Source: Escherichia coli
GTDB taxonomy: Bacteria > Pseudomonadota > Gammaproteobacteria > Enterobacterales > Enterobacteriaceae
DNA: 64,000 bases
NCBI RefSeq assembly: GCF_044324785.1
Contig: NZ_CP172127.1
Strand: one strand, 5' to 3'
The notes under the pieces were generated by a model, which saw nothing but the letters and a program-made list of their open reading frames with translations, did no database searches and was not told the DNA's origin. Of this stretch, positions 3,666 to 58,367 are shown one piece after another. Both the position numbers and the translations under genes were made by a program. Within the stretch, counting starts at the first letter, position 1. Each line of letters starts with the position of its first letter.

Positions 3666-3681
3666 AATCTGGAAGTGAAAG

Positions 3682-3734: not shown

Positions 3735-3782
3735 CCATAATTGGCTGTGTCAGTTGGTTACACACCATTGAGGTGTGTACTA

Positions 3783-5244: not shown

Positions 5245-5527
5245 GAGCAAACTTAACGGCTTGTTGAACGCTGATACTGTTATCGTCCAGAAAAAACCAG
5301 CGGCGGCTGTTAATCAGCCAGTGTCCGAGCCAGCAAAGTCGGTAAGCGAGCTTCCGGTCAGCTCCGGGAAAGATTTCTGTTCCCTGGTCAAAGAAGGTTT
5401 TGCACCGTTCCACATCGTCGGTGCTCATACCTCCGACTTTCCAGTTTTCATAATATTTTGCCATGTTGCCATCCTCATCATGGTTGTTATCAATGCCGGA
5501 CGGCAGTTGCTGATGATTTGTGTTCAT
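5051..5527 (-). CDS. Hypothetical Trp-rich protein, antisense to the parA-dnaB operon direction
   Basis: Protein-like composition (…DYWADYWTQPTEPEKALVHMTDWQYQKL…); start chosen at MNTNHQQ; the same-region plus frame is hydrophobic low-complexity. Confidence 0.45.
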   Translation of the reverse strand: MNTNHQQLPSGIDNNHDEDGNMAKYYENWKVGGMSTDDVERCKTFFDQGTEIFPGADRKLAYRLCWLGHWLINSRRWFFLDDNSISVQQAVKFALIHQHHWLPATVEQMTPAEMSLALTDYWADYWTQPTEPEKALVHMTDWQYQKLCSNRKKVNGDQ

Positions 5528-5735
5528 AAGGTATTTCTCTTCGTAAACATGTTGATTATGAGCGCAAATATGCTGTACGTACCTTCTGACCGGGGTCGGC
5601 AAACTTACCGGTCGGAAAATGTACAGACAGTTATGGGCCTTTTATGCCCTGCAACTGTTCGTCCGGCACCCGTTTTCGTTTTTTTGCATGGTGGGTTTGC
5701 TGTGAAACAGGCTCCGTTTGCCCGGGAGGTGGCGT

Positions 5736-7124
5736 ATGTCTGAACGCTATATTCCACGCTCCGTTGATGCAGAGCAGGCCGTGCTGGGCGGCCTGATGCT
5801 CGATAATGAACGCTGGGATGAGGTGGTACTGATGCTCCGGGGGGAGGATTTTTCTCTGGCCGCACACCGGGTGATATTCCGCACCATGTCAGAGCTGGCA
5901 ACCAGCGGTCAGCCGTTCGACCTCATCACGCTGAGTGAGCATATTGAGAAAACAAACAATATTGAGGCACTGGGTGGTTTCGCTTATCTGGCTGAACTCA
6001 GCAAAAATACGCCTTCTGCAGCCAATATTATCGCTTATGCCCGTATTGTTGCTGAAAAGAGCATGCTGCGTCAGTTGCAGGAGACGGGGAATGCGCTGAT
6101 TACGGATGTGGCCGCACCGGATGCGACACCACGCACTGTTCTTGAATCCGCTGAACGTCGGCTCTTTTCACTTTCACAGACTGGCATGTTGCATGAGCGA
6201 TGTGAAGTCAGTCTCACCTCGGCTATGGAGCTGGCGCTGCGTCAACTGGAAGAGGGACTGAACGCCGGCGGGATGACGGGCACGCCCACGGGATTTGATG
6301 AACTGGATAAGATGACCTGTGGTCTGCAGCCCGGCGACCTCATTCTTCTGGCTGCACGCCCGTCTATGGGGAAAACAGCGCTGGGCCTTACCTTCTGTCT
6401 TAATGCCCTGTGTAACCGGACCGATGAAACGGTATTTCTTTTCAGTATCGAAATGTCCCGGGAGCAGCTGATTCTGCGTGTCCTGTCAATGCTCTCCAGG
6501 GTGGAGCTGACACGTCTTCGCAGCAGCATGATGAATGATGAAGAGTGGGCGAGAGTCACGGCAACCATGGGACGCTTCATGAATGAAGCGTCATTCATCG
6601 GAGATGGAAACCGCCTGATAATTGATGACACCTCCTTCCAGACGCCGTCATCGCTGCGTGCCAGCGCCCGTCGTTATGTCCGTCTGTATGGCAGACCTTC
6701 CCTGATAATGGTTGATTACCTCCAGCTGATTCGTTCTCCGGACCAGGAGAACCGAACGCAGGAAATTGCGGAAATATCCCGCGCCCTTAAGGCGTTAGGT
6801 AAAGAGCTGGGATGCCCGGTACTGGCACTGTCTCAGCTTAACCGTCAGGTGGAGCAGCGGGCGGATAAGCGCCCCAATAACGGTGACCTGCGTGATTCCG
6901 GGGCGCTGGAGCAGGATGCTGACCTCATTATGTTTATTTACCGTGATGAGGTTTATAACTCTGGCACGCTGGATAAGGGCGTTGCTGAAATCATTGTGAG
7001 CAAACAGCGGCAGGGGCCAACCGGAACGATACGGGTGAACTTCGACGGCCGCTACACCCTGTTTTCACCGTTTGAACGTGGATGGAATTTTGACCGTGCC
7101 GGAGGAAATGCGTATGTCAATTAA
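5736..7124 (+). CDS. DnaB-like replicative DNA helicase
   Basis: N-terminal DnaB domain (AEQAVLGGLMLDN), Walker A ARPSMGKTALGLTF, Walker B IMVDYLQL; SD GGGAGGTGG before ATG 5736. Confidence 0.9.
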   Translation: MSERYIPRSVDAEQAVLGGLMLDNERWDEVVLMLRGEDFSLAAHRVIFRTMSELATSGQPFDLITLSEHIEKTNNIEALGGFAYLAELSKNTPSAANIIAYARIVAEKSMLRQLQETGNALITDVAAPDATPRTVLESAERRLFSLSQTGMLHERCEVSLTSAMELALRQLEEGLNAGGMTGTPTGFDELDKMTCGLQPGDLILLAARPSMGKTALGLTFCLNALCNRTDETVFLFSIEMSREQLILRVLSMLSRVELTRLRSSMMNDEEWARVTATMGRFMNEASFIGDGNRLIIDDTSFQTPSSLRASARRYVRLYGRPSLIMVDYLQLIRSPDQENRTQEIAEISRALKALGKELGCPVLALSQLNRQVEQRADKRPNNGDLRDSGALEQDADLIMFIYRDEVYNSGTLDKGVAEIIVSKQRQGPTGTIRVNFDGRYTLFSPFERGWNFDRAGGNAYVN

Positions 7125-8766
7125 ACGAAATCATTCCGTTGATCTGGGAGCTGCCATCATGCAACCGGGCCGTCAGGCCAGCACGACGGGTAACGTGGTG
7201 GCGCTGGGGGAAACACCGATGATTCTGACGCTGGATCAACTGCGCCCCAACCCGGATAACCCGAGGACCACGCGTAATCCCCGGTACGACGATATTAAAA
7301 GTTCAATTTTCTCCCGTGGACTGGATACGGTGCCCAAAGTCACCCGGATACCTGAGAGTGAGCCGGATATCTATATTTTCAGCGATGGTGGTAACACGCG
7401 ATATCAGATCCTGAAAGAGCTGTGGGAGGAGACCGGCGATCAGCGTTTCTATCGTATTCATGTGCTTTTCAAGCCATGGCCGGGACGGCTTCAGTGCGTC
7501 ATTGGTCACCTGGCTGAGAATGAAGTCAGGGGCGAACTGACGTTTATTGAAAAGGCCCGGGGTATCCATAACGCCCGGATGATTTATGAGGAGTCGATGC
7601 AGCGAACCGTGACGATCAGGGAACTGGCGTCACTGCTGACGGATGAAGGACTTCCGGTAAGCCACTCATCTGTCAGCAGGATGGAGCATACTCTGAAATA
7701 TCTGTATCCGTGGATCCCCGATCTTCTGGAATCAGGATTAGGAAGACCGCAGATCAATTCACTGTTGTCTCTCCGGCAGGATGCGGAACGCATCTGGGGA
7801 CAGTTTGCGGTGGCAACAGAGAACGGGGCGGATTTTGACCGCGTGTTTGGTGAATGCTGCAGCAAATTCAATTCACCGGAGCTCTGGTCACTGGAGATGT
7901 TCCGGGATGAGCTGATTGGTGATCTGCTGAAAGCGTTACCACATCCGGTGCTGGATTATGACCGCTGGTTGCTTGAACTGGATCCGCGGGAGCGTAACCG
8001 ACGTCACCATTTTGGCGAACCTGAGCCGGTGCTCATTCCCGCAGACAGTGATGCGATGCCAGAGCCTGCGACTGACGGTGTGTCGGCAGTGACGGCGGAG
8101 AAGAACAGCGGAAGGGAGCAGTCTGTGATTTCCGCACCGGCTGACCATGACACCGTCATGAATACGGAGCAATCCCCGGCTGGAAAGGCGGAGAGTTCAG
8201 TTATCGAACAACGCGAAGAACGCCGTAGAAAGGAAGTCCAGCCGGATATGTATGGTGGTGAAGAAACATACAGCGGCGATTACGAAGAGGATGGCGATAC
8301 CCGTGATGCTGCGGATCTGCCGGTAACGTCACCGGAAGAGGGGGCTCAGCAGAGCAGCGGTGAAATATTCAGTGAGCCGGTATTCAGTGTTGGTGAACTG
8401 GATGATATCGAATATCTGCAGAATGAGGCATTTCACCTGGCATGGGAGCTGGCGTCACACACAGGCTGTGTCGATGAGCTGGCTATGGACAGGGAAAGCG
8501 AACTGTCTGCGGGATTCGGCGCGGCAGAGGCGAATTGTTCTCCGGTCATGGCATTTCTTGTCAGACTGACCGGTGAGGAGGTTCTGCGGGTCAATCCGGT
8601 TTCCCTTGATGCACTGCTGATAGGCGGCAGTACTGAAGAAGACCTGCCGTTGCTTGATGATGAACATGCAGGAAAGTTGCTTCGCCTGCTGGGTGTGTTG
8701 CGTCGTCTGCGGGGGCTGCAGCGTATGGTGGAAGACGAGAGTGAGGAAGGGCGCGATGAATGCTGA
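7114..8766 (+). CDS. ParB-like nuclease-domain protein with acidic C-terminal region
   Basis: N-terminal ParB/Srx-like domain (LTLDQLRPNPDNPR...); SD GGAGGAA before ATG 7114; overlaps dnaB-like stop by 11 nt. Confidence 0.8.
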   Translation: MSIKRNHSVDLGAAIMQPGRQASTTGNVVALGETPMILTLDQLRPNPDNPRTTRNPRYDDIKSSIFSRGLDTVPKVTRIPESEPDIYIFSDGGNTRYQILKELWEETGDQRFYRIHVLFKPWPGRLQCVIGHLAENEVRGELTFIEKARGIHNARMIYEESMQRTVTIRELASLLTDEGLPVSHSSVSRMEHTLKYLYPWIPDLLESGLGRPQINSLLSLRQDAERIWGQFAVATENGADFDRVFGECCSKFNSPELWSLEMFRDELIGDLLKALPHPVLDYDRWLLELDPRERNRRHHFGEPEPVLIPADSDAMPEPATDGVSAVTAEKNSGREQSVISAPADHDTVMNTEQSPAGKAESSVIEQREERRRKEVQPDMYGGEETYSGDYEEDGDTRDAADLPVTSPEEGAQQSSGEIFSEPVFSVGELDDIEYLQNEAFHLAWELASHTGCVDELAMDRESELSAGFGAAEANCSPVMAFLVRLTGEEVLRVNPVSLDALLIGGSTEEDLPLLDDEHAGKLLRLLGVLRRLRGLQRMVEDESEEGRDEC

Positions 8767-12728: not shown

Positions 12729-13994
12729 ATGGCGCTACCTGCAGAAAGCCTTATTGCGCATACGCTCAGAAAAATGAAGGCCAGCATGGCAGAGAAAGCC
12801 AGTCGTGAGGACGGGAGGATACGCAGTGGGCTGTTGTTTACCGGCAATGTTCACGATTCGTATCCCCGCAGGCTGTTGCTGGATACGCGCCTTTCTCCCC
12901 TTGATAAAACTGCGTGGATGATGATTCGTCTGCATGCCCTGAATAATGAGGGCGCAGTATTTCCGACGTACGATGAACTGCAGTTACAACTGGCATCTCC
13001 CGGGCGCGGGAAGGCGTCCCGTGAAACAGTGAGCCGGGTGCTGACAATGCTGCGGCTTACGGGCTGGCTGAGTCTGTGTAAGCGGGTCAGGGATGAAAAA
13101 GGGCGGGTCCGGGGGAATATTTACGCCCTGCATGATGAGCCACTGACCTGCTGTGATGCAGAAAAGTTTGACCCACGATACCTGGATATGGTTCTGGATA
13201 CTGTGAGCAGGAGCCGGAACAAGACAATCCGGCACACAGCCAGTGAAGTGCTCAGTGATATCAAAAATGAGCCCGGTATGCGGCATTACCACAGCCATAT
13301 CACTCTGTTTGAATCGCGTATGGGGGCAGCACAGACACCTGGTCAGCTGGCGGCGCGTCAGCGGGTGAACCCGATGGTGAATGAAAACACAGGCAGAGAG
13401 AGTGGTTCGGATTCCGTACATACCCCTGCACCTGTCGTGCAGGTAACCGAACTCAGTGCTCCGTTAACCGAACTCAGTGAAAAACAGGAAATGAGCCCAC
13501 TCAGTTCGGATTCCGTACTTCCTGAAAAATCAGTAACTTATCACTCGGTTCGGAAACCGAACAATTACGTACGTAATATCACACACAGTGTGATTAAAAA
13601 TACGTACGTATTGCCTGAGTCGGTGAAATCGCAAATCAGCGCAGAAGACACGGACATGCTGACAAAACAACTGCAGGCGTTGCCGGAAGAACTGGCAGGT
13701 AGTGTGCTGAGCAGCCTGTTACAGATGCTCAGCAAAAACACGCTCCAGAATCCGGTTGGCTGGATGCTGGCTGTGATGAAACTTGCGCGTGAGGGACGTT
13801 TTAATACGCCGGATATGTCCGTGCATGAATCCCGGTCGCCAGCCCGTGCACCATATCAGCCTGTGTACAACCGTGATGAACGTGAACGTCGTCGCGGGAA
13901 AGTGGCGTCACCTGAAACGGTGAGCAACATTGTCGCAGAATTCCGGGCCAGCCTGAAACGTGCAAATGCTGCCCGTCTGGCGGCGCGTGTGTGA
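12729..13994 (+). CDS. Putative ICE replication initiator (winged-helix Rep-like; SPI-7 STY4528-type family by recall)
   Basis: SD AAGGAG before ATG 12729; N-terminal HTH/winged-helix-like segment; internal peptide repeats coincide with DNA repeats/palindromes; followed immediately by a 36-bp tandem array. Confidence 0.7.
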   Translation: MALPAESLIAHTLRKMKASMAEKASREDGRIRSGLLFTGNVHDSYPRRLLLDTRLSPLDKTAWMMIRLHALNNEGAVFPTYDELQLQLASPGRGKASRETVSRVLTMLRLTGWLSLCKRVRDEKGRVRGNIYALHDEPLTCCDAEKFDPRYLDMVLDTVSRSRNKTIRHTASEVLSDIKNEPGMRHYHSHITLFESRMGAAQTPGQLAARQRVNPMVNENTGRESGSDSVHTPAPVVQVTELSAPLTELSEKQEMSPLSSDSVLPEKSVTYHSVRKPNNYVRNITHSVIKNTYVLPESVKSQISAEDTDMLTKQLQALPEELAGSVLSSLLQMLSKNTLQNPVGWMLAVMKLAREGRFNTPDMSVHESRSPARAPYQPVYNRDERERRRGKVASPETVSNIVAEFRASLKRANAARLAARV

Positions 13995-14008: not shown

Positions 14009-14836
14009 TCTATGGCGCTACTGGCACCATAGTACAAAAAATGAGCGATGGTGCCACTGACACCACGGTATAAAAAATGAGCGATGGTGACGCTGGCACC
14101 ATAGTACAAAAAATAAGCGATGGTGCCACTGGCACCATAGTACAAAAAATGAGCGATGGTGCCACTGGCACCACGGTATAAAAAATGAGCGATGGTGCCA
14201 CTGGCACCACGGTACAAAAAATAAGCGATGGTGCCACTGGCACCACGGTATAAAAAATGAGCGATGGTGCCACTGGCACCACGGTACAAAAAATAAGCGA
14301 TGGTGCCACTGGCACCACGGTACAAAAAATAAGCGATGGTGCCACTGGCACCACGGTACAAAAAACGAACGATGGTGCCACTGGCACCATAGTACAAAAA
14401 ATAAGCGATGGTGCCACTGGCACCACGGTACAAAAAATAAGCGATGGTGCCACTGGCACCACGGTACAAAAAACGAACGATGGTGCCACTGGCACCATAG
14501 TACAAAAAATAAGCGATGGTGCCACTGGCACCATAGTACAAAAAATAAGCGATGGTGCCACTGGCACCACGGTACAAAAAATAAGCGATGGTGCCACTGG
14601 CACCATAGTACAAAAAATGAGCGATGGTGCCACTGGCACCACGGTATAAAAAATGAGCGATGGTGCCACTGGCACCACGGTACAAAAAATAAGCGATGGT
14701 GCCACTGGCACCATAGTACAAAAAATGAGCGATGGTGCCACTGGCACCACGGTATAAAAAATGAGCGATGGTGACGCTGGCACCATAGTACAAAAAATAA
14801 GCGATGGTGCCACTGGCACCATAGTATAAAAACGAA
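14009..14836. repeat. Tandem array of ~22-23 copies of a 36-bp unit, each containing a 17-19-bp palindrome (A)TGGTGCCACTGGCACCA(T) plus an A-rich spacer
   Basis: Directly visible periodicity of 36 bp across ~830 bp with minor unit variants (cggtac/tagtac, ataa/atga/acgaa, gtgacgctg). Confidence 0.95.
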
Positions 14837-17940: not shown

Positions 17941-18270
17941 TGGCAGGGCTAACTTGTCGCTCCGGCGACCACCAATGTTCCATAGTGGCCTGTGAGGAAC
18001 GCCTTCGGGTGGCCCATGTCGCTTCAGCGACCACCAATGTTCCATGTGGCCTGTGAGGAACGCCTTCGGGTGGCCCACGTCGCTCCGGCGACCACCAATG
18101 CTTCATCTGACCTGTGAGGAGCGCCTTCGGGTGGTCAGTTTTACACCTCCTGAGCCTGAAAGGAGCTGTGCGTACTGAAGGGATATATTCCCGGAAGTAC
18201 GGGCAAATCTGCACACCTTTGAGAGCAGATGTCACTGCGGTTTTCCGTGATGATGAAGGCTTTTTTTACT
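17941..18270 (+). repeat. Structured ~320-bp element, copy 1 of 3 (three ~61-bp tandem units plus hairpin-rich tail)
   Basis: Unit gtcgctccggcgaccaccaatgttccatgtggcctgtgaggaacgccttcgggtggcccac x3, then tail with CTCCT/AGGAG, GTACT/AGTAC, ATCTGC/GCAGAT stems; near-identical at 46163 and 48465. Confidence 0.85.
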
Positions 18271-18385
18271 GCACAGACAGCCGGAAATTCAGCTGATTCC
18301 GGCATCCCCGACGGGAACTATCACTCCCGTCAGGGCTGGTGATGTTCTCCGTCATATCTTTTTTTCACTCCATGGAGAAATCATC

Positions 18386-18850
18386 ATGTCTGCAACTAAC
18401 TCTACTTCTGCAAAAACTGAATACTTCAACCTGACCATGAAAGGTCTTGGGTATCTCAGCAATGTACGTCAGGTTAACCATCAGAACGGTTCGTTCCTCA
18501 GCTGTGTGATTAACGCACTGAGTGGACCAACGGACAATCCGTCCTATACGCGTTTTGATGTTACGGTTGCCGGTAAAGAGGCGACCACCCTGATCTCCCG
18601 CTGCCAGAAAGCAGTGGATGAGGACCGCAAGGTACTGCTTGGTTTTACGTTAAGCAACCTTGCCACCGACATTTTCACCCTGAACAAGGGGGAGCATGCC
18701 GGTGAGCAACGCGTCAGCCTGAAAGCCCGCCTGATCAAGGTGGACTGGATAAAAATAGGCCAGGAGCAGGTCTATAAGGCTGAAAAAGCGGAGTCCCAGC
18801 CACCGAGCCATGGCACCACAAAACGTGAATACGCAGAAGACTCCTTCTGA
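18386..18850 (+). CDS. Conserved ICE protein preceding ssb (STY4534-type family by recall)
   Basis: SD GGAGAAA before ATG 18386; conserved neighbour of ssb in this ICE family. Confidence 0.65.
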   Translation: MSATNSTSAKTEYFNLTMKGLGYLSNVRQVNHQNGSFLSCVINALSGPTDNPSYTRFDVTVAGKEATTLISRCQKAVDEDRKVLLGFTLSNLATDIFTLNKGEHAGEQRVSLKARLIKVDWIKIGQEQVYKAEKAESQPPSHGTTKREYAEDSF

Positions 18851-46162: not shown

Positions 46163-46478
46163 AACTGTCGCTTCGGCGACCACCAATGTTCCATGAGGCC
46201 TGTGAGGAACGCCTTCGGGTGGCCCATGTCGCTCCGGCGACCACCAATGTTCCATGTGGCCTGTGAGGAACGCCTTCGGGTGGCCCACGTCGCTCCGGCG
46301 ACCACCAATGCTCCATCTGACCAGTGAGGAGCGCCTTCGGGTGGTCAGTTTTACACCTCCGTAGCCTGAAAGGAGCTGTGCGTGCTGATGGGATATGTTT
46401 CCGGAAGTACGGGTAAATCTGCACACCTTTGCGAGCAGATGTCACCACGGTTTACGTGATGATGAAGGCATTCCGGAT
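46163..46478 (+). repeat. Structured ~320-bp element, copy 2 of 3
   Basis: Same three-unit plus hairpin-tail organisation as 17941-18270, with a few substitutions. Confidence 0.85.
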
Positions 46479-47175
46479 TTCGTCCGGTACTTTTACTTTT
46501 TCTCAGCAGACTTTCATAAAAAATGCTTTATGGATCTGCGTCTTAACATATTTTCTGACTTTCCGCATAAGCTTCTTATGACTGTGCGCACGGCATAAGG
46601 CCATTTGAAATTTGGCCGCTTGCGTGTGTACGTGGAGTTTGAAGCAGTGCATGCGTCACTTTTGTCGGCGTTCACGCTGACAAAGTGACGCATGAACGTC
46701 GACTCAACGAACCCGCATAAACAGGCTCTTCACGGGATGTTTTTTAACATTTGAAGAAGTGACCTGACGTGATCGTTTTTTTTCAACTTCATTCTGTTTC
46801 GTAGTGACGTCTCTCCGGTAAAACTTCCGGAAAAACGTCAGTCAACAGAATATCATTGTTTTTTAAGGAGTTTAATGTAGTGAGATGCCGAATCGGCGAT
46901 ATATCTGACAGGCAGATATGTCGGGGGCGACCTTCAGAGGTACAGTTAATTCTGCGGCCGGTTAAACTAACCGGCTTGACACCCCGCAAAACCTGAACAC
47001 TTTGCGTTACCCTGACGCACAGGCACTCACTCACCGAAGGAACGTAACGAAGAACCGTGTCGTCAGGTGAAATGCAGATGAATTCTTCTGTTGTGTTCAC
47101 GGCACAACAGAAGAATTCATCTGTGTTGTGTGCTGCTGTTTTGTTTAGGTCATAGGTCATAAGGAGAATGTACAG

Positions 47176-48081
47176 ATGTCCAGACGTGAGAAATTGCTTA
47201 AAAAGGATCTGGTTGCTCATGTCCGAAAAGAAAAGGGGAGTTTTAAAAAGTTAAGTGACTATACAAGGATTATGCATCGATTCGCTGAAACGCTTGCTCG
47301 TCTGAATGTACAGATTAGTTCTGCTGCACAGTTAAAAGTTCGTCACATTGAATTATATATGAACAGCAGGACGGATGTATCAAAACGAACGAGAGAAAAT
47401 GAAATGTCAGCAATACGCGCGGTTTTACGTCAGGTTGGTAAGAATAAACTTGCCGATCCCAGCCATCCACGGCTGAGTAATAAAGCATTAGGTATTTCAG
47501 GTGAGAGTCGTAAAGGTACGAAAAGTCTGATTACAGACGATCGTTTTCGTGAAATTCTTCAGCGCATTGAACAAAAAGATAAAGGACTCGCTGCAACGGT
47601 TAAATTGTCGCGTTATCTTGGTCTGAGAAATGAGGAGGCCATTCAGTCCGCCAAATCGCTCAAAACATGGAAACAGGCATTAGAACGGGGAGATGAAAAA
47701 TTACGTGTTATTTTTGGTACGAAAGGCGGTCGTGAGAGAATGACCACGATTGTTGACAGAAATAATGTTATTGAGGCTGTTAATTATGCTATTAAATATG
47801 CCGGTGAGCATGACGGGCGATTAATCGACAGAGGTAATCTTAAGTCTGCAATGAATTATTATCTTAACTCATTGCGTCGTTATGGTGAAATGAAAGGCGG
47901 TGATGAGACACCACATAGTTTTCGTTACAGTTATGCCGCAAGTGCAATGAAATACCATATTATGAATGGTTACAGTTATCATGAAGCGCTTGCATTAACA
48001 TCTATGGATCTTGGTCACGGTGACGGCAGAGGACGTTATATCGAGCAGGTATATTGCCAGTTGTTAGGACATGAAGAATAG
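47176..48081 (+). CDS. Tyrosine-recombinase/integrase-like protein
   Basis: SD TAAGGAGAA before ATG; candidate catalytic residues R (LGLRNEEA), HxxR (HSFRYSYA), Y (GRGRYIEQVY); family by pattern only. Confidence 0.55.
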   Translation: MSRREKLLKKDLVAHVRKEKGSFKKLSDYTRIMHRFAETLARLNVQISSAAQLKVRHIELYMNSRTDVSKRTRENEMSAIRAVLRQVGKNKLADPSHPRLSNKALGISGESRKGTKSLITDDRFREILQRIEQKDKGLAATVKLSRYLGLRNEEAIQSAKSLKTWKQALERGDEKLRVIFGTKGGRERMTTIVDRNNVIEAVNYAIKYAGEHDGRLIDRGNLKSAMNYYLNSLRRYGEMKGGDETPHSFRYSYAASAMKYHIMNGYSYHEALALTSMDLGHGDGRGRYIEQVYCQLLGHEE

Positions 48082-48464: not shown

Positions 48465-48775
48465 ACTTGTCGCTTCGGCGACCACCAATGTTCCATGTGG
48501 CCTGTGAGGAACGCCTTCGGGTGGCCCATGTCGCTCCGGCGACCACCAATGTTCCATGTGGCCTGTGAGGAACGCCTTCGGGTGGCCCACGTCGCTCCGG
48601 CGACCACCAATGCTTCATCTGACCTGTGAGGAGCGCCTTCGGGTGGTCAGTTTTACACCTCCTGAGCCTGAAAGGAGCTGTGCGTACTGAAGGGATATGT
48701 TTCCGGAAGTACGGGCAAATCTGCACACCTTTGAGAGCAGATGTCACTGCGGTTTTCCGTGATGATGAAGGCTTT
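48465..48775 (+). repeat. Structured ~320-bp element, copy 3 of 3
   Basis: Near-identical to copy 1. Confidence 0.85.
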
Positions 48776-49842: not shown

Positions 49843-49928
49843 CTATTTCTCAGTCCTTGTTTTTAACCATGTGATTATTCGCAGAAGCCCGACTTCTCTG
49901 GCCTGCTTTTATTCCGGAGAATGAGATT

Positions 49929-50177
49929 ATGCAAATAAGTGCAGAAACTCGCGCTGTTTTACGTCACTACAGACAGATCATTAACGCCAGACGGCGTGAA
50001 GATGGCATGAAAGCTCTCAGCACGCCGCAAATCGTTGATGAGATCTGTGAGTTTATGCTCAGCCAGCCAGCAGTGTATCTGGGGGGGGCAGTTCATCATG
50101 CAGAAGGCCAGAACAAGATAGCTGTCTTTGTTCATGGCTTTTCAACAGACCGTTATGCTTTCGCCACCACATGGTAA
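49929..50177 (+). CDS. Hypothetical small protein
   Basis: 82-aa ORF in same-strand block. Confidence 0.45.
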   Translation: MQISAETRAVLRHYRQIINARRREDGMKALSTPQIVDEICEFMLSQPAVYLGGAVHHAEGQNKIAVFVHGFSTDRYAFATTW

Positions 50178-50261
50178 GGCGGGTCTGATTTTACTGTTAA
50201 CCGTACGGTTCACTCTCATACCGTACGGTGGGAGTGAACCCTTTTCATTAAGGACACTCTC

Positions 50262-50771
50262 ATGAAAACGAAAACTTCTGCACCTGCTGTATATGTTGGT
50301 ACCTGGGCTAAATACAACAATGGCAGCATAGAAGGATGCTGGTTTAATGATTTAACCGTTTTTGAAACTGAAAGCGATTTTTTATCTGCGGCCCGTAAGT
50401 TTCATCAGGATGAAAAAGATCCTGAATTTATGTACCAGGATTATGAAAACTTTCCTTCGGGAATGGCTTCAGAATATGGTTTCAACTGGGCTTATGTTGA
50501 AGGTTATCGTCTTGCCCGTGAAGAAGGCTGTGAAGATGCATGGTATGCATGGGTTTCTAATACCGGTGATACCTGTTTCGAACAGTTCAGGGAGGCGTGG
50601 CTTGGTGGTCCTTATGACAGTGAACTCGAGTTCGCCGCGCAGTACGTGGATGAATGCGGTTTTCTGTCAGAGGTACCTGATACTGTTGCACGCTATTTTG
50701 ATTATGAGGCTTTTGCGCGCGATTTGTTCATGGAACTGGATTTTGTCGACGGACACGTTTTCCATCGGTAA
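50262..50771 (+). CDS. ardA: Antirestriction protein ArdA
   Basis: PAVYVGTWAKYNNGSIEGCWF...HQDEKDPEFMYQDYENFP and acidic composition match ArdA by recall. Confidence 0.8.
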   Translation: MKTKTSAPAVYVGTWAKYNNGSIEGCWFNDLTVFETESDFLSAARKFHQDEKDPEFMYQDYENFPSGMASEYGFNWAYVEGYRLAREEGCEDAWYAWVSNTGDTCFEQFREAWLGGPYDSELEFAAQYVDECGFLSEVPDTVARYFDYEAFARDLFMELDFVDGHVFHR

Positions 50772-50967
50772 CTCACAGCCATGAGGGCGCATATAAGCCG
50801 TGTACTGGCGGATGTGATTTCAGCATACATTCTGCTGGTTTTTTTACCGTTGTTGACAATTTTAATCATCGCGGATGAACAACCTGAACTCTGTTGTTCA
50901 CCGCCCGGAGGCATCGTTCCTTCGGACGGTGTGCTCTTTCATCAGAAAGAATCAGACAGGGGGTTTT

Positions 50968-51327
50968 ATGTATTCGCGTTTTATTACTGGTTACTGGCAT
51001 CTTCAGACGCAGTCCGCTTTGCTGGCACATCTCTGTCAGCTTGAAGGTGAACTGACGATACTTCGCGCCTGGCAACGTCTCGGAATTACCCCGGTGCCGG
51101 AGGATGAAGATGAGCCTTCACCACTTTACTCAATTTTGTGGGATGTTGGTGAGGCTCTGGGCTGGTTGCTGTATGACCTGGAGATGGAAAATGTTCCTGC
51201 ACCGGGAACGATTTTCCACGAGGTATTCGACAGGGTTATATCTCTGGGGTATGAGACTGAGCCCGGTATCTGGGCTGAAAGTATCAGTACCGGAAAGCGC
51301 TACGCTGCAATGCCTGACGAATTTTAA
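50968..51327 (+). CDS. Hypothetical protein
   Basis: SD GGGGG before ATG 50968. Confidence 0.45.
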   Translation: MYSRFITGYWHLQTQSALLAHLCQLEGELTILRAWQRLGITPVPEDEDEPSPLYSILWDVGEALGWLLYDLEMENVPAPGTIFHEVFDRVISLGYETEPGIWAESISTGKRYAAMPDEF

Positions 51328-51394
51328 TGTTTTCCACATTCCCACAGGGACTCATCCCTGTGGGACGGGTCCCGGCTTTTTCAGGAGAAATTTC

Positions 51395-51733
51395 ATGAGA
51401 CCCGATTTGAATACTTTACCCGGAGATTCCGGCTGCAGCGTCTGGTTCTATGACGGAATGTCTCAACCGCGTCTGCTGGCGGGCAGTATTGCCGGGTTAC
51501 TGACGGATGTTACGATCACATCGAATTACCGTGGTGACGTCACATCTGAAATTCATGACGTGGTGCAGGAGTGGCTTGCGACCGGCAGGGGTAACCTGGC
51601 GGATTTAAAGGAAGAACTCTGGTACTACAACCTCTACATAAATCCGTCGGCAGACGAACTTATGAATGCCAACAGGCGGTATGGCCTCGGACATACCACC
51701 AGGCTGAAAGGCTTTATCAATAACGCGGCGTGA
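51395..51733 (+). CDS. Hypothetical protein
   Basis: SD AGGAGAAA before ATG 51395; preceded by hairpin. Confidence 0.5.
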   Translation: MRPDLNTLPGDSGCSVWFYDGMSQPRLLAGSIAGLLTDVTITSNYRGDVTSEIHDVVQEWLATGRGNLADLKEELWYYNLYINPSADELMNANRRYGLGHTTRLKGFINNAA

Positions 51734-51808
51734 CACACCGCCATCCCGTGAGGGCTCAGCTCCTCACGGGGCTGTTCCCTCGGTGATTTTCATACAGAGA
51801 GGAGCAGA

Positions 51809-52246
51809 ATGATGAACGTTAAGTCTGTGACTGAGGTTGACGACGCTGTGGTTGCCCGTGTCAGTGAAGTTCTGGAATTCGCATTTCCGGGGCAGAAATT
51901 TGAAGTGCTGAAGGTATGCGATTCCGGCGTTTACAACATGATTAATGTGTACTGGCTGGACGGCCCGACACAGGCTGAAGTGCGGTTTATCACCCGTGCG
52001 TTTGAAGGCAAAAACGGGCTGAGGTTTGTGCACGAATCCCGCGAATTCAGTAATGAATTTGTGCAGGAGTGCATTGACCGGCTTCGCCAGAAGTACGGGC
52101 ATCGCAACGTTCCGCCAGAGGTGACCGTGGAGCGTTACTGGAAAAACGATCTGTGGAAGATTAAAACAGATCGTTTCCCGGGCACTATTGAGGTTGCCAT
52201 CAACGAAATGGGGATGGAAACCAGTAAATACCGGAAGGTTGTATAA
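51809..52246 (+). CDS. Hypothetical protein
   Basis: 145-aa ORF, SD GAGAGGAG upstream. Confidence 0.5.
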   Translation: MMNVKSVTEVDDAVVARVSEVLEFAFPGQKFEVLKVCDSGVYNMINVYWLDGPTQAEVRFITRAFEGKNGLRFVHESREFSNEFVQECIDRLRQKYGHRNVPPEVTVERYWKNDLWKIKTDRFPGTIEVAINEMGMETSKYRKVV

Positions 52247-52353
52247 CCGGCTGGACTTTTGACGATGGCGGAATGTGACAATTCCGCTTTTCCCGTGAGG
52301 GCATTGTTCCTCACGGGACAATGCCCTCTTCATTTACCAGAGGAGCATTGATT

Positions 52354-53331
52354 ATGGCTGAATGGTGCAGAAATCGTTTTGAAATCACCGGTAAGTCAGT
52401 CTGTCTTGACGTACTGATTCAGTGGATTGAAGGGAATGATGCCCCCCGGTACCGTCATGCGATCCAGCAGAGCATACTGCTGTTTCTTGCAGGCTGTGCG
52501 GGGATACTGAAACCGGTAAGAACGGTGTCATATCCGCCTTATCCCGGGCTGGTCAGTCACGGTGCCGGCTCAACAACTGTAGCCAGTCAGGCGTTTGAAC
52601 AATGGCTGGGATTACTGACCAGGGATGCCTTCCTTGATCACGAGACGGTGAAGACAATAGATCGTCTTTATCATCAGACAGGGACAGGCGCTATCCGGTG
52701 GAGTAATCTGCCTGATACGGCGAAGGAGATAATCGGTGGTGTGCTTGCACAACAATATGCTGACTGGTTTGGCGTGGCGGATGTGTATGAACGCCCTGAT
52801 AACGCCTTTCTCTGGGAGTCGTTGTTAACATTTGCGGAGTATTCGCAACCCTGTGATATGCTGCAGGTGATGCCAACACGACTGGCCACGGAGCTGAACG
52901 GAAGTGGTGGTTTGCTGAAAGGCACCGGAACGACCCGCAGTTTTTACTGCCGCCAGTTTGGTATGGAGTACCCACTGGGGCAGAATGTCCGGTGGAAACG
53001 AACCGGGCTGAGTACGTTGATACTGGAGTTTGATACCATCTGGTGTCCGCCTTCAGGTGTACTGGTGGGGGAGATTTCGGCAGTGTTTGACTGTGAGGTC
53101 CGTCACTGGTACAGCGAGCCGAAGAACGGAATCAGAGGCTATGACTGTTATGATGGTGGTGAACATACGGACAGCAATATGGAAGCCGAATGGCCACACT
53201 CTGACGATGAGGGGGAGGTCGCGGAGCATGAGCAGCCACAACTCTGTCTGATCAGGGACACGCAGCCAGGTGAACGCGTCATGGCATTAGCATCAGTCGA
53301 GTCCCCGGGGCCAGTAGTAAAAATAGTGTAA
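52354..53331 (+). CDS. Hypothetical protein
   Basis: SD GGAG before ATG 52354 (MAEWCRNRFEITG...). Confidence 0.55.
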   Translation: MAEWCRNRFEITGKSVCLDVLIQWIEGNDAPRYRHAIQQSILLFLAGCAGILKPVRTVSYPPYPGLVSHGAGSTTVASQAFEQWLGLLTRDAFLDHETVKTIDRLYHQTGTGAIRWSNLPDTAKEIIGGVLAQQYADWFGVADVYERPDNAFLWESLLTFAEYSQPCDMLQVMPTRLATELNGSGGLLKGTGTTRSFYCRQFGMEYPLGQNVRWKRTGLSTLILEFDTIWCPPSGVLVGEISAVFDCEVRHWYSEPKNGIRGYDCYDGGEHTDSNMEAEWPHSDDEGEVAEHEQPQLCLIRDTQPGERVMALASVESPGPVVKIV

Positions 53332-53340
53332 TGAAACAAT

Positions 53341-53365
53341 GCGCCACATTTTGTGGCGCTTTTTT
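53341..53365. terminator. Terminator hairpin between convergent genes
   Basis: GCGCCACA-tttt-GTGGCGC followed by TTTTTT. Confidence 0.6.
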
Positions 53366-53412
53366 AATAAATCAGTGATGGCAGAGTTGTTATTGTAAAT
53401 AACTCTCCGTGT

Positions 53413-56328
53413 TTACTGAGTCAGTTTTTTTATCAGGTCGTGAATTTTATCACCTGAAAACTGGGTCATGAAAGTTATCTTTATGGATTTACTGATTTGT
53501 TCGAAGAGTTTCTGTGCATGTTTTATTTTATCGCGTTCTTCATGTCTGAGTTCACGTTTGCCATCAACATTTTTGGTTTCAATAATAAGGTTCAGATAAT
53601 CACCCTTTGACGTGTTTACAACATAAGCGAAGTCAGGGGAGTAAGTGTATCCTCCCGCTACAGGAATTTTTATTGAATTTTTGGGGATCTTTGTGAAGAC
53701 AATGACTGACCTGACCTCACCCTCTGTCATATTGAGTTTTTCAAGTTCTGAATCATAAAATACTTCTTCAAAAAGATAAGAGTCCAGTGGAGGGCTTGTA
53801 TTATCCTGTAAAACGCCAAGATCACTTGACAATACATCAGCAAGATAACCGCCGTCTGCATTGGTGAATTTCGTGGGATGGACAGTTCCTGATATTACAT
53901 TATACCCAAGGCTGAATTTACTGAACGAGTTATTAAGCAAATACTTGCTGAAACCAGATTTAATTTTTCTGATTGTCTGAATGTTAAGGTATTCAGTTAT
54001 ATTTATGATGTCTTTTATATCACAAAAAACCTTATGCATGGTGTCATGTTTGACAAAAATAGTCTGTGATAATTTATCAAGGAATTCACGATAGCTCATT
54101 GTGTTTATTTTGTGAAAATTATCCTCATCAACACTGAGAATGCTTTTCGACATTGCCGTATCATTATGGATATAAATTCTTTCAATACGAGTATGAGCAC
54201 CGGATTTGGTAAATCTGTCTGCTTCTTCCAGCATAAACGCTCTGAAAAGGGATAAAAACTCACGTTCACTTTTTATTTTATACTCAATCACGACCTTTTG
54301 ATTGATCAAGTCCCATAGTTCTTTCAGCTCACTGAACTTACCAACACGCATTTTAGTGCGTCTTTTTCCATCAGAGGCTTTTTTTATTTTGCCTGGTTTC
54401 ACTCCTGCAGGAAATGCTGCCGGATATCTGGCTTTTAAGCGGCTATAGGCATCTGAATCTTTGAAGTTATCATTATCATCAATGATCTCATCACCAAAAA
54501 TTTCATTCAAGAGTGTTCTGGAGGAAAGCTCCGGATATTGAGACAGGATTTTATCCTTAAGCTCCTGAGTAAACTTACCTGGAACAGTCTCTTTGAAAGA
54601 ACTATCGTTGATCTCTTTGACAAGAGAATCGACAAAATCTTTTTCTGTAAAATCAACATAATAGTTGAGGGTAAAATTGCGGTCTTTCACACGACACATG
54701 TATTCATTCACCGGAAGACGTAAACCACGCCCTACTTCCTGAAGTTTAGATGTGGTGCTACCGCTCGAACGGAGCTTACAAATCTGAAAGACATTTGGGT
54801 TATCCCATCCCTCACGCAACGTCCATTTAGAGAAAATGAAACGGCGAGGATTTTCTAAAGACAATAGAAGCTCTTTATCATGAAGGATTTCGTTGATTTC
54901 CTGCTCAATTTTATCATCTTTATCACTATTATCTTTTGAAAAATAACCACCATGAACAGAAGATATATCCTTAACAGTTTTTTCAAGGTAGTTTCTGTAA
55001 AACTCATCTTTTTCTGTTTTTAACAGTTCATTTGCTTCTGCCAAAACGTATTCTTCGAACTTAGTTTTCAGGCTTCCTGCAATATCATTACCATCACGAT
55101 AGCCTTCAATGTCATCAATGAAGAAAAGAGTAAGAGGTTTTATGCGTGGCCTTTGTGTCAGATACTCTTTTTCTAACTTAAAGTGTTCTTTGACAGCTTT
55201 ACGTATCATGTTATCAGCAAGTGTCTGATCGTAAGAATAGGGGTTTATCGAACTACCAATTTTTAGCTCAATACCATTACTCAACACTGCTGTATTCTTA
55301 TTTAAAGCATCAAGAGTTAAATCATGGATCGCACTATGCGTCTTAGATAGTGATTCACCTTTGGCTAACTTAAAAATTTTTTTATTATTATTTTCGTTCA
55401 GTTCAAATGTAGCTTCTTTTCCGTCAGATTTGACCAACTTGAGGTTGGCATTACCATCACCAACTATATCCTCAATGTATGCATCAATACCTTTAACAAG
55501 ATCTTCATTGAAGGCATCTACGGCTGTAAGACGATAAACTAAGTTCTTATAGCCTTCACTAAAGGTTGCACCATAGCGGATGATATATTGGGCATTAAAT
55601 TTTTGAATATGTTCCCATGTCTTTTTACCAGTAGGAAATTTATGAGGCTCATCAATGATAATGAATGGTTTTATCGCACTAAGTGCAGAAAATGGGGTAT
55701 CAAACTGATTATTAAGCAAGCCAACATCATAAGTGTCAGTTAAAGACTTAGAGTTAATCATCCCTGAATTGATCACAAGAATGTGTATATATTTCTTATT
55801 GAAATTACTTGCTTCAACAAAATCATGGATAGCTTGAGGTATATACGATTTTGTATTTTTACCCGAACGTTTCTGACTTTCAACAACGTAAGTCTTTAGT
55901 TCACGCTCGTAATCATCTCGAAAGTGTTCTTTTATAGCATCGCTTTTTAAAAAGTTAACGGTTCCGGCTTTGATCGATAGGGTAGGAACAATGATGATAA
56001 ACTTGTTAATACCAAATGATTTGTTCAGGTCAAAAATTGTTTTGGTGTAAGTATAAGTTTTACCTGTACCTGTCTCCATAGAAACATCAATTACGTTGCT
56101 TTTAGCATCGTAATTATCTTTTGAGTGCTCAATACCATTGAACTCCTGAACATTTTTTATGTTGTTGTAGTATTGTTGTTCAGATAGATTCAGTTCTGGA
56201 TTAGCTAACAGGCGAATTGCAACATGATCCGTCTGATGAGGTATGGCGGATACAAAGACATTCATTACCGAATCAACGCCAGCCTTTTGATGAGGTAAAT
56301 TTTTTTCGAATGTGAACCCTTTAGACAT
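53413..56328 (-). CDS. res: Type III restriction enzyme Res subunit
   Basis: 971 aa; helicase Walker A METGTGKTYT, DEAH-like IIIDEPH, motif VI QEVGRGLRL, C-terminal PD-(D/E)xK; low GC; immediately downstream of mod. Confidence 0.85.
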   Translation of the reverse strand: MSKGFTFEKNLPHQKAGVDSVMNVFVSAIPHQTDHVAIRLLANPELNLSEQQYYNNIKNVQEFNGIEHSKDNYDAKSNVIDVSMETGTGKTYTYTKTIFDLNKSFGINKFIIIVPTLSIKAGTVNFLKSDAIKEHFRDDYERELKTYVVESQKRSGKNTKSYIPQAIHDFVEASNFNKKYIHILVINSGMINSKSLTDTYDVGLLNNQFDTPFSALSAIKPFIIIDEPHKFPTGKKTWEHIQKFNAQYIIRYGATFSEGYKNLVYRLTAVDAFNEDLVKGIDAYIEDIVGDGNANLKLVKSDGKEATFELNENNNKKIFKLAKGESLSKTHSAIHDLTLDALNKNTAVLSNGIELKIGSSINPYSYDQTLADNMIRKAVKEHFKLEKEYLTQRPRIKPLTLFFIDDIEGYRDGNDIAGSLKTKFEEYVLAEANELLKTEKDEFYRNYLEKTVKDISSVHGGYFSKDNSDKDDKIEQEINEILHDKELLLSLENPRRFIFSKWTLREGWDNPNVFQICKLRSSGSTTSKLQEVGRGLRLPVNEYMCRVKDRNFTLNYYVDFTEKDFVDSLVKEINDSSFKETVPGKFTQELKDKILSQYPELSSRTLLNEIFGDEIIDDNDNFKDSDAYSRLKARYPAAFPAGVKPGKIKKASDGKRRTKMRVGKFSELKELWDLINQKVVIEYKIKSEREFLSLFRAFMLEEADRFTKSGAHTRIERIYIHNDTAMSKSILSVDEDNFHKINTMSYREFLDKLSQTIFVKHDTMHKVFCDIKDIINITEYLNIQTIRKIKSGFSKYLLNNSFSKFSLGYNVISGTVHPTKFTNADGGYLADVLSSDLGVLQDNTSPPLDSYLFEEVFYDSELEKLNMTEGEVRSVIVFTKIPKNSIKIPVAGGYTYSPDFAYVVNTSKGDYLNLIIETKNVDGKRELRHEERDKIKHAQKLFEQISKSIKITFMTQFSGDKIHDLIKKLTQ

Positions 56329-56330
56329 GA

Positions 56331-58367
56331 TTAGTTCCTTACCACCAAATCTAAATCAATAGATTTTTTATTAGCATAACTTTTTAGTGCTTCATTGAGT
56401 TCCATCTGTTTCGCACTTTCGAAGTTGCTGCCATAAAATACAACTTTGTTAGGGGCAAAGTCTTTGTCTGCATCCAGCTTTTGAAGTAAAGCTTTCAAAG
56501 CCTCACTTGTGAAATTAGGCGCAATTAGATATAGCCGACCATCGCACAAGTGTGCTTTGTAGCCATTAAGGTCAATATCTTCAATTGGTGTTGTTAGCAA
56601 GCTGCCATCATACACGCACCATGTCGTCAATAGAGTGTCATACTGCTCTGGTGTCAATACAGCATCGTCAAAGAAACTAAGATTAGAAAGCGTAAGTTCA
56701 GACTCATCTTTCACTCGAAAATCATGAACTGTTTCAAATATTTTAAATCCCAAATCTCCATTATAATTAGGATTATCTTTTTTCAGCTTTTTTCCTGCCT
56801 TAATAATTCTGTCTTTTGTTATATTGAAGATGGATTTATACCCTTCTTTATAGGCTTGTTTCTTTTTATCTGTTTCTTCATCTAATTGAACACAGATGAA
56901 GTTTCTTTTCCTGCCGTCTTCAATATTTAACTCCAGAATACCATGAGCTGTAGTTCCAGAGCCAGCAAAAAAGTCAAGATAAATGTCTTTATCTTCGGTT
57001 TTTACTGAACCAAATAGTGTTTTTATTAAACTTGTTGGCTTCGGGTAGGAGAAATATCCTTTCCCACCAAAAAGATTTTCAACCTCAACACCACCATCAC
57101 TTTTAGTTGAAATAATTGATCTTAGTAAAAACTCTTCAACTTCATCTAAAAATTTAACCGAACTGGGTTGGGTGTTTTCTGTACTGGCAAACCAAATTCC
57201 ACCACAAATAACGCTACCATCATGTAGTTTTTTGATATCTGCATACTTTCCATCTATTCTTTTTGCAATATGATTAAAAGTGCCTTCTTTCCAACGCCAG
57301 CCTCTGTCTGGGATTTTGACAGGGTTATTAGTCAAAGGGTGCAATACTTCATACGTGGGTCCAAATGAATCTGCATTAGGCCAGCTCATATTAATTTTAC
57401 CCCATGGCCTATAATCTTCGTTCAAACAGTTGTAAAGAGTAATTCCACGATCATATCCGTTGGAGCTGTAGAATTTTTTGAGTTGCTGCTCTGCTTTATC
57501 TAATGGCACCTTCTCCTTTTTTAACTTTTCAATAAACTGATATACATCATCAATACCATCTTTCCGCATTAAAAATTCTTTACTTATTTCGTTATTCTTC
57601 GCATAAGCAAGGATGTACTCATGGATATTACCAATACCCTTATCATTTTTAGGGATACGTTTATTCCATACAATATTTTCTATGAAATTTGCTTCGCCAA
57701 AAATTTCATCACAAATAGTTTTAAGTTGATTTAATTCATTTTCGTCAATCGAAATAAATATCACACCATCTTCACGTAGAAGCTCACGAGCAATATATAA
57801 ACGAGGATAAATGAACGTTAACCATGCGCTATGGCTGCTTGAACCATTCGTGGTAAATTCAAGTATACGTTTAGCCTCATCAAGATCGATACCTGCCAGA
57901 TCAGAAAGCTGTTCAGGTGTAAACTTGCGATCATCGTTATAGGCGAATCCATCCTTACCTGTATTGTATGGTGGATCAATGTAAATCATCTTCACCTTTT
58001 CAGAGTAAGCATTAACCATATGCTTCAATACTTCGAGGTTATCCCCTTTGATTAACAGATTCTGACTGTTTTTGTTCTCTTCACGTTGGTTATGGTCTTT
58101 ATCTTCGGAGAGTAATGTCTTCGGCGGCAAGTTAGCTAACAGACGGGCATAGGATTTACCAAGCCAGTTCAGGCTGTATGATTCTTTGGAGAGTTCAACA
58201 TCCGATGATTTGACGATTTCAAGCAATTTTTCCTGAATGAACGCTCCATTTTTATCAAAACACTGTGGAAAGTTAGCCTTTAAAATCGCAAGCTGTTTAC
58301 TGTTTGTGGTTTCAGTTTCAGAGAAAAGAGTTTCTTTTTTCAGTTGAAATTGGGGTTGTGTATTCAT
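56331..58367 (-). CDS. mod: Type III N6-adenine DNA methyltransferase Mod subunit
   Basis: Motif IV DPPY (MIYIDPPYNTG) preceding motif I FFAGSGTT (beta-class order); SD GGAGGTG 5 nt before ATG 58367; mod-res order. Confidence 0.85.
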   Translation of the reverse strand: MNTQPQFQLKKETLFSETETTNSKQLAILKANFPQCFDKNGAFIQEKLLEIVKSSDVELSKESYSLNWLGKSYARLLANLPPKTLLSEDKDHNQREENKNSQNLLIKGDNLEVLKHMVNAYSEKVKMIYIDPPYNTGKDGFAYNDDRKFTPEQLSDLAGIDLDEAKRILEFTTNGSSSHSAWLTFIYPRLYIARELLREDGVIFISIDENELNQLKTICDEIFGEANFIENIVWNKRIPKNDKGIGNIHEYILAYAKNNEISKEFLMRKDGIDDVYQFIEKLKKEKVPLDKAEQQLKKFYSSNGYDRGITLYNCLNEDYRPWGKINMSWPNADSFGPTYEVLHPLTNNPVKIPDRGWRWKEGTFNHIAKRIDGKYADIKKLHDGSVICGGIWFASTENTQPSSVKFLDEVEEFLLRSIISTKSDGGVEVENLFGGKGYFSYPKPTSLIKTLFGSVKTEDKDIYLDFFAGSGTTAHGILELNIEDGRKRNFICVQLDEETDKKKQAYKEGYKSIFNITKDRIIKAGKKLKKDNPNYNGDLGFKIFETVHDFRVKDESELTLSNLSFFDDAVLTPEQYDTLLTTWCVYDGSLLTTPIEDIDLNGYKAHLCDGRLYLIAPNFTSEALKALLQKLDADKDFAPNKVVFYGSNFESAKQMELNEALKSYANKKSIDLDLVVRN

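Follow-up and report, generated by a model that had tools for sequence, protein, structure and literature searches.

The ardA block of an integrative and conjugative element (ICE) of Escherichia coli raises a simple question: why does every spaced junction between its genes hold a strong hairpin, and what is the meaning of arms that can pair in more than one way? We analyzed a 64,000-nt stretch of contig NZ_CP172127.1 (assembly GCF_044324785.1; hereafter the window), in which the block with its junctions spans 50200-52350 and the genes follow one another on the + strand in the order ArdA, hypothetical, hypothetical, LPD29 and DUF1281. An earlier note on this DNA had described intergenic hairpins at three of these junctions (here H1, H2 and H3) and had offered RNA processing, attenuation and repetitive extragenic palindromic (REP)-like elements as possible meanings. 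All three hairpins exist, and alternative pairing is the general rule of the junctions, not a peculiarity of one site. We consider it somewhat probable, on the basis of the folds described below, that the hairpins are attenuator-like leader modules in the mRNA of the block, that is, conditional or leaky terminators with a modest mask on translation.

All modules have the same general design. A first hairpin, A, is overlapped by a second hairpin, T, which is staggered downstream, uses the 5' arm of A again and carries the 3' arm of A in its apical part. At four window junctions the 3' arm of T can pair alternatively with the Shine-Dalgarno (SD) or start region of the next gene, and we call this third helix the mask (Table 1). 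The earlier note had recognized the stem of H1 but ended it slightly short, at 51363, and its H2 hairpin, placed at about 51750-51777, is real but lies 5-7 nt further to the left. The recurrence that it had noticed at a second site was borne out: the arms of H2 (CCCGTGAGG at 51745-51753 and CCTCACGGG at 51762-51770, with an 8-nt loop) return unchanged in H3, at 52292-52300 and 52309-52317. The overlapping second pairing that it had seen at H3, GAGGGCATTGT (52297-52307) with ACAATGCCCTC (52318-52328), extends to a 14-bp hairpin (52297-52310 / 52315-52328). We found further alternative pairings at H2 (51750-51781) and H1 (51347-51373), as well as modules of the same design in the ardA leader (50200-50261) and at the junction before the gene at 50968; the homologue of the latter junction in the related island L004 was also folded. 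Relatives such as L004 and L006 have a stronger T at the H1 junction than the window does.

Exact CCCGTGAGG occurs in six copies in the window, four of which are the arms of H2 and H3. RNA folding of the three intergenic regions gave z-scores of -3.1, -4.1 and -5.0, and the hairpins folded in isolation gave -4.6 to -9.0, which indicates that the window hairpins are more than chance. With a cutoff of -16 kcal/mol, a list of hairpins over the whole window was of no help, as hundreds of them arise from GC-rich coding sequence.

Do the two hairpins compete, and is the competition general? While the RNA reaches only to T, T is more stable than A at three of the four window junctions, and after the start region has been transcribed, A together with the mask outcompetes T (energies in Table 1). 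For a wider view, we used the window together with six related islands of E. coli, Salmonella and Erwinia, and from their Prokaryotic Genome Annotation Pipeline (PGAP) annotations we took all same-strand gene pairs with a gap of 40-250 nt, which gave 42 junctions, 36 of them non-redundant. A structure-blind test, which asked for two staggered hairpins with no common base pair and each at or below -14 kcal/mol, detected such pairs in 31 of the 36 junctions and in 2 of 144 dinucleotide shuffles. By an eye count, about 28 of the 36 fold as A plus mask over the full spacer and as T when the transcript ends just past the 3' arm of T. Among eight other spacers of the window, one held a dual hairpin, and this was itself a module of the same type behind a STAXI RNA array (18306-18353). 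In an F-plasmid leading region, two of seven spacers passed the test. The leading region of the F-type plasmid pMS10711A (L010) has dual staggered hairpins at 7235-7312 and 5158-6025, upstream of DNA methylase and DUF1281 genes, and its remaining gene junctions have a single GC hairpin with a free SD.

The trp and pyrBI leaders are the classical terminator/antiterminator attenuators, and an attenuator is characterized by a pair of helices that exclude each other, of which the earlier one takes up part of the terminator; this arrangement was found here. As in those leaders, the hairpins exclude each other through a common strand, the later one is GC-rich with a U-run, and the earlier one would form first in transcription. 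Unlike those leaders, the junction modules lie between full-length cistrons and recur at nearly all junctions of one operon, they revealed neither a conserved leader peptide nor a ligand domain or known binding protein, and the 3' arm of T can mask the next SD.

We then asked whether T has the features of an intrinsic terminator. The window T hairpins have the GC-rich stem of at least 5 bp and the loop of 3-8 nt, with energies of -18.6 to -24.8 kcal/mol. A consensus scan of 49900-53400 returned 16 terminator-like sites, against 3.5 ± 2.0 in shuffles; the first rank went to 52297-52328, the most terminator-like site of the region, and 50207-50240 was also top-ranked. T hairpins are the top terminator-like sites both in the window and in Erwinia pEB102. 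In the 8 nt 3' of T, U occurs 4.3 times on average where 2.3 are expected, with at least five U in 22 of the 36 junctions, and most H3 homologues, including those of other genera, have U5-U8 after T. A consensus scan for promoters found no promoter-like site on the + strand within 49900-53400. Given that T is built on the 5' arm of A, is usually the stabler of the two and is followed by a U-rich run, T resembles an intrinsic terminator and A its antiterminator.

To examine conservation, we aligned 27 junctions upstream of DUF1281 or LPD29 genes from 24 loci of Enterobacterales, including Escherichia, Salmonella, Erwinia, Pantoea, Mixta and Edwardsiella. A protein-guided scan added 19 loci from Leclercia, Pantoea, Erwinia, Edwardsiella, Mixta, Rosenbergiella and others. 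In helix A, 98% of the alignment cells are paired, two pairs are changed on both sides, and the covariation score is 0.132 against 0.081 for the best slid control. In helix T, 94.7% of the cells are paired, three pairs are changed on both sides, 14 extra pair types occur, and the score is 0.247 against 0.132, so that both helices exceed all slid controls. In three loci (L025, L026 and L029), both arms of A are one base shorter through matched losses (CCCUGAGG / CCUCAGGG). The H2 and H3 modules are paralogous, and between them T is preserved by different letters (CAGC/GCUG in H2, UUGU/ACAA in H3). The window and Erwinia agree in every letter of the 37-nt A/T core, although the adjoining DUF1281 proteins are about 50% identical; such an invariant core is expected if one arm has to fit two or three partners. 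Many G·U pairs lie within helices A and T, and the + strand folds better than its complement in 27 of the 36 spacers (-39.8 vs -36.7 kcal/mol, P = 0.001), which places the structures on the mRNA strand. The hairpins of the junctions thus exist as competing structures of that strand and are conserved with some compensatory change, the paralogous H2 and H3 included. With mutually exclusive pairs on the mRNA strand and a terminator-like later hairpin with its U-run, attenuation is the best fit among the three options of the earlier note. RNA processing is possible, because AU-rich single-stranded stretches come after the hairpins.

A plainer explanation of the same hairpins is fixed mRNA punctuation without a switch: they would stabilise 3' ends or terminate in part, perhaps with cleavage by RNase E in the AU-rich stretch behind them, and would so set the differential stability of the cistrons, and hairpin A would be incidental or just extra stability. 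Stable GC-rich hairpins just past stop codons with AU-rich single-stranded stretches behind them are consistent with this, as are the simple intergenic hairpins that also occur in the F-plasmid leading region and the fact that the sensor of a switch was not found. However, a stabiliser needs one hairpin, and two mutually exclusive ones are present in most junctions and hardly ever in the shuffles. In addition, both hairpins are kept across genera, with the few both-side changes and the matched 1-nt loss in the A arms described above. We therefore regard fixed punctuation as possible, if unlikely.

The third helix would connect the module to the downstream gene. Over the 36 junctions, the SD/start region is unpaired with a probability of 0.376, compared with 0.433 in composition-preserving shuffles (P = 0.002). 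In the family of junctions upstream of methylase genes, the 3' arm of T varies together with the start region, as seen by eye and without a formal count (CCAUGUG/CACAUG, GCGUGU/ACACGU and AUACGU/GCGUAU). We also tried the idea that the hairpin loop is a copy of the start region. The mimicry signal was weak (5.78 vs 5.27, P = 0.007) and applies to some junctions, such as ardA, where CACUCUCAU occurs twice; it is not general.

If T, A and the mask act as their folds suggest, then each spaced junction of the polycistronic mRNA would be a portable leader module with three competing cis-acting helices. During transcription A would fold first. T, whose stagger is 5-15 nt downstream, would then take the 5' arm of A, since it is usually more stable than A alone, and would be followed by the U-rich run. 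After the polymerase has passed, the 3' arm of T with the U-run could pair with the next SD/start, so that A plus mask becomes the lowest-energy state. Each junction would in this way be a conditional or leaky stop that limits both read-through and independent translation of the next cistron, and entry-phase genes may as a result have a low default expression that is graded along the operon. From the modelled folds we infer termination at T, its counteraction by A and an effect of the mask.

Several results weigh against the attenuator-like interpretation. The U-runs of the window are interrupted (UUCAUUU, GGUGAUUUU and GCUUUUU), and pairing with the A-run that precedes the SD, instead of termination, could be the reason why a U-run is maintained. 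Masking of the SD is only modestly above the shuffle null, with 9 of the 36 junctions individually notable, and the mask helix of H1 is weak and not significant alone, as 18 of 200 shuffles were equally good. The covariation tests are based on related sequences, and two pair-count measures were not above the column-shuffle control (104 and 126 of 500 shuffles attain the observed value), so that the covariation support is moderate. A search for the sensor of the switch found no leader peptide, ligand pocket, binding protein or riboswitch family match. The hairpin pair could therefore be a fixed leaky terminator instead of a regulated switch. One candidate leader peptide, encoded by a 28-codon open reading frame (ORF) at 52265-52351 that spans the H3 junction, was rejected, as its AUG is absent from the homologous junctions.

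Could the ribosome itself select between the folds? In a ribosome relay, a ribosome that terminates on the upstream gene would open the lower part of A, so that the 5' arm of A becomes free to bind the 3' arm of T and the next SD becomes accessible. The geometry is suitable for such a relay, because in 17 of 35 junctions the stop codon is followed by the first hairpin at a distance of 6-13 nt (12 nt for H1 and 11 nt for H2), so that a ribosome at the upstream stop is well placed. A few junctions also respond in silico when the ribosome footprint is forced to be unpaired, from 0.34 to 0.56 at H2 and from 0.20 to 0.39 at L002-763. However, when the stop codon plus 13 or 16 nt was forced unpaired, the start region did not open in general (+0.012 vs +0.008 in shuffles, P = 0.62). 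Moreover, many junctions have the extra 5' hairpin H0, whose position is kept and whose sequence differs in homologous junctions, or have 20-40 nt between the stop codon and A. The relay is therefore quite improbable.

The hairpins might alternatively work in DNA, either as structures of the transferred strand (priming, single-stranded DNA promoters or protection) or as attC-like sites for the conserved Integrase_1 recombinase at the block head, in which case the genes would form an integron-like cassette array. Integron attC sites are hairpin-forming inverted repeats that bound co-oriented promoterless genes near a tyrosine recombinase gene, and they can affect translation of the next cassette. 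The junction modules are likewise inverted-repeat hairpins at the bounds of short, co-oriented promoterless genes, behind the tyrosine-recombinase-like gene at 47176-48081, and the arm-spacer layouts 9-8-9 and 11-4-11 resemble recombinase core sites. Related H1-type modules also sit between non-homologous genes of different islands. In island L002, a two-gene cassette (LPD29 and a hypothetical gene, 2959-3915) that is absent from L003 (2961-3085) is bounded by two CCCGTGAGG module copies, and the only ArdC-DUF1281 junction of L003 is a hybrid of these two copies, with the crossover in CCTCACGGG.

This was, however, the only cassette difference bounded by modules. In another case the inserted unit is a module plus its downstream gene, with breakpoints 4-8 nt past stop codons, and in two further cases the breakpoints are inside genes, so that three of the four differences break outside the hairpins. 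These cases suggest that the modules are in effect 5' leaders of gene units that now and then serve as recombination substrates, and not dedicated recombination sites, and no attC-type conserved boxes were seen in them. Structured elements also occur in anti-defence regions of conjugative elements as Frpo/ssi single-strand promoters of plasmid leading regions, which are long hairpins that rebuild -35/-10 boxes upstream of operons (PMC11541004). In contrast, the junction hairpins are 26-34 nt long and GC-rich, have no -35/-10 hexamers and are present at every gene junction. The U-run and the SD/AUG complementarity suggest RNA, as they would have no function in DNA, and both folding energy and the G·U pairs speak for the coding strand, whereas the transferred strand would be the template strand if the F-plasmid rule holds. 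A role of the hairpins at the DNA level is accordingly quite improbable.

What became of the third option of the earlier note, REP-like elements? REP elements and bacterial interspersed mosaic elements (BIMEs) are present in hundreds of copies over the E. coli chromosome, have their own consensus and may stabilise mRNA or attenuate. They resemble the junction hairpins as GC-rich imperfect palindromes near stop codons, and a selfish REP-like or miniature inverted-repeat transposable element (MITE)-like palindrome that spread into intergenic spaces would account for recurrent families just past stop codons and for near-identical copies in distant genera. However, matches to the junction elements were found in 126 of 5426 E. 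coli genomes, at 1-4 places in each (median 1), and for all 40 records listed the match falls under an LPD29 or DUF1281 gene of such a block. The elements are strand-specific, each matches the start region of its own downstream gene, we saw neither target duplications nor terminal repeats, and other spacers of the same ICE are without them. This option has to be dropped from the earlier proposal, and a selfish origin of the palindromes is extremely improbable.

Is the block connected to the STAXI RNA that precedes it? The STAXI motif (RF01728) has been known since 2010 and its function is unassigned (Weinberg et al. 2010, PMC2864571). The three STAXI arrays of the window consist of 61-nt units and score 61.6-68.6 bits; the first and third are nearly identical. 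STAXI and the junction modules have a neighbourhood of antirestriction, integrase and ssb genes in common. STAXI also has an SD-like GAGGAA paired to GUUCC, loop-to-flank pairing that allows a pseudoknot or alternative folds, and a similar 9-mer, CCUGUGAGG. However, STAXI forms tandem units outside gene junctions, and its covariance model gave no match at 50100-52400 even at E ≤ 10; thus, the junction modules are not STAXI members. More generally, no Rfam 15 family matched the junctions even at E ≤ 10, and we found no account of these junction hairpins in the literature searched. Pairing in trans between STAXI and the junctions was considered and rejected: the STAXI loop CCUGUGAGGAAC is complementary to 52306-52317, but it covaries with its own upstream GUUCC partner and not with the junction arms, and in Erwinia the loop differs (UUGAGAGGACC) while the junction arm is unchanged.

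The position of STAXI immediately upstream of the block, and in the same orientation, is repeated in nine other loci whose sequence covers the block head. All nine begin with STAXI, after which usually come EFASI and an Integrase_1-family gene; a second STAXI then precedes the block and its junctions, and in pEB102 the block is followed by UvrD and the MOB_H relaxase. In the window, a sub-threshold match to the EFASI RNA motif (46.3 bits vs the gathering score of 51.2) lies at 46878-47031 on the + strand, between a STAXI array and the integrase-domain gene, and six other loci have full-score EFASI matches at the equivalent position. EFASI, like STAXI, has no known function. We also noted an inverted repeat at 47076-47122 (AGATGAATTCTTCTGTTGTG...CACAACAGAAGAATTCATCT), with perfect 20-bp arms and a loop of 7 nt, about 50 nt upstream of the Integrase_1-family gene.

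In Tn916, internal terminators T1-T3 are overcome by the cis-acting antiterminator RNA canT (PMC11658703), and an antitermination system has also been reported for pLS20 (cited in PMC8708921). In these operons of conjugative elements, as would be the case here, terminators insulate genes that are costly if expressed at the wrong time, and as a structured RNA antiterminator lies upstream in Tn916, so a STAXI array lies upstream of the block and is co-oriented with it. The differences are that the Tn916 and pLS20 systems are Gram-positive and were shown experimentally, that no competing hairpin is described next to their terminators, and that an action of STAXI on the junctions is a conjecture. 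By analogy with Tn916, the T hairpins of the junctions might be insulating terminators and STAXI their processive antiterminator in cis. We consider this rather unlikely, and given the Tn916 precedent, STAXI-dependent read-through is the most interesting extension of our results. If this speculation is true, then only transcripts from a proper entry-phase promoter that carry STAXI would read through all junctions, which would provide a function for STAXI, and perhaps for EFASI, and a Gram-negative counterpart of the antitermination control in Gram-positive conjugative elements.

Table 1. Features of the window. The parts of the ardA leader and of the H1, H2 and H3 junctions were folded separately; blank cells, no value given.
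Feature	Position	Strand	Energy (kcal/mol)	Remarks
STAXI RNA array 1	17955-18261	+		RF01728; precedes co-oriented DUF3577
Dual-hairpin module after first STAXI array	18306-18353	+		CCCCGACGGGAAC...CCCGUCAGGG...; directly after the array, upstream of DUF3577 gene 18386-18850
STAXI RNA array 2	46166-46461	+		RF01728; precedes co-oriented integrase-domain gene
Tyrosine-recombinase-like gene at block head (Integrase_1)	47176-48081			PF12835 and PF12834; LGLR, HSFR, LGH...Y motifs
STAXI RNA array 3	48468-48773	+		RF01728; 68.6 and 66.3 bits vs gathering score 40.5; immediately upstream of ardA block, co-oriented
First ORF of block	49929-50121	+		annotated frameshifted in identical RefSeq record
ardA leader module	50200-50261	+	A, -15.4	hairpin A 50200-50229 (ACCGUACGGU x2); dual hairpin found
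ardA leader hairpin T	50207-50240	+	-19.8	overlaps A; 13 bp, then CUUUUCAUU; flagged terminator-like
ardA leader mask	50230-50236	+	-13.6	T 3' arm GGGAGUG alternatively pairs CACUCUC just 5' of ardA AUG
ArdA gene	50262-50771	+		annotation; AUG at 50262
Junction module upstream of 50968 gene	50896-50937	+	-19.7; -14.2	staggered hairpins 50896-50934 and 50907-50937, then CUCUUUCAUC
Hypothetical gene 1	50968-51327	+		annotation
H1, hairpin A of junction 51328-51394	51340-51365	+	-20.5	perfect 11-bp arms 51340-51350 / 51355-51365, 4-nt loop CUCA; z = -5.0
H1-junction hairpin T	51347-51373	+	-18.6	GGGACUC.../...GGGUCCC, then GCUUUUUC
H1-junction mask candidate	51366-51404	+	-13.1	CGGGUC with first codons GACCCG of 51395 gene; z = -1.5
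Hypothetical gene 2	51395-51733	+		annotation
H2, hairpin A of junction 51734-51808	51745-51770	+	-20.1	CCCGUGAGG / CCUCACGGG; z = -4.6
H2-junction hairpin T	51750-51781	+	-22.6	GAGGG..CAGCUCC / GGGGCUG..CCCUC, then GGUGAUUUUCAU; z = -4.7
H2-junction mask	51772-51807	+	-15.1	T 3' arm CUGUUCCCUC with LPD29 SD region GAGAGGAGCAG; z = -3.6
LPD29-domain gene	51809-52246	+		annotation; AUG at 51809
H0, extra 5' hairpin of H3 junction	52267-52288	+		GCGGAAU...AUUCCGC, then UUUU
H3, hairpin A of junction 52247-52353	52291-52318	+	-19.5	z = -6.4
H3-junction hairpin T	52297-52328	+	-24.8	14 bp, 8 GC, loop UCAC, then UUCAUUUACC; z = -9.0
H3-junction mask	52319-52350	+	-13.8	T 3' arm CAAUGCCCUCU with DUF1281 SD region AGAGGAGCAUUG; z = -4.4
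DUF1281 gene	52354-53331	+		annotation; AUG at 52354
Ordinary bidirectional terminator closing ardA block	53341-53359	.		common to block and convergent type III restriction-modification genes

Where is this block found? The chromosome of E. coli APEC E19035 contains the 3.5 kb surrounding the hairpins at 100% identity, and this segment was found in 113 of 5426 complete E. coli genomes. According to the annotation of the identical chromosome, the window represents a chromosomal E. coli ICE of the TIGR037xx type, in which conjugation genes are followed by the co-oriented + strand block. The plasmid database gave no close match to the ardA block; only the 5' end of DUF1281 matched, with 76-80% identity. 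Directly behind this anti-restriction block lies a convergent insertion, a type III restriction-modification pair at 53413-58367 on the - strand (res of 971 aa and mod of 678 aa); in relatives, an N6 methylase, UvrD and a TraI relaxase occupy this site instead. Elsewhere in the window, a tandem array at 14012-14832 contains 22.8 copies of a 36-nt unit (91% matches) in which GGTGCCACTGGCACC palindromes recur; it may represent a site of the centromere or iteron type next to a partition or replication gene. At 13566-13610, in or near the ORF at 12729-13994, lies a palindrome of 45 nt whose ends are TACGTACGTA.

The anti-restriction and anti-defence genes of conjugative elements must work within a short period after entry into a new cell. 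The modules described here would form a conserved non-coding control layer over such genes, present at nearly all spaced junctions, in places better conserved than the neighbouring proteins and absent from Rfam. They provide mutable targets for how ArdA, ArdC, DUF1281 and their neighbours may be limited, and they put the STAXI and EFASI motifs into a testable functional context. In addition, they lie at the 5' edge of the gene units exchanged between islands.

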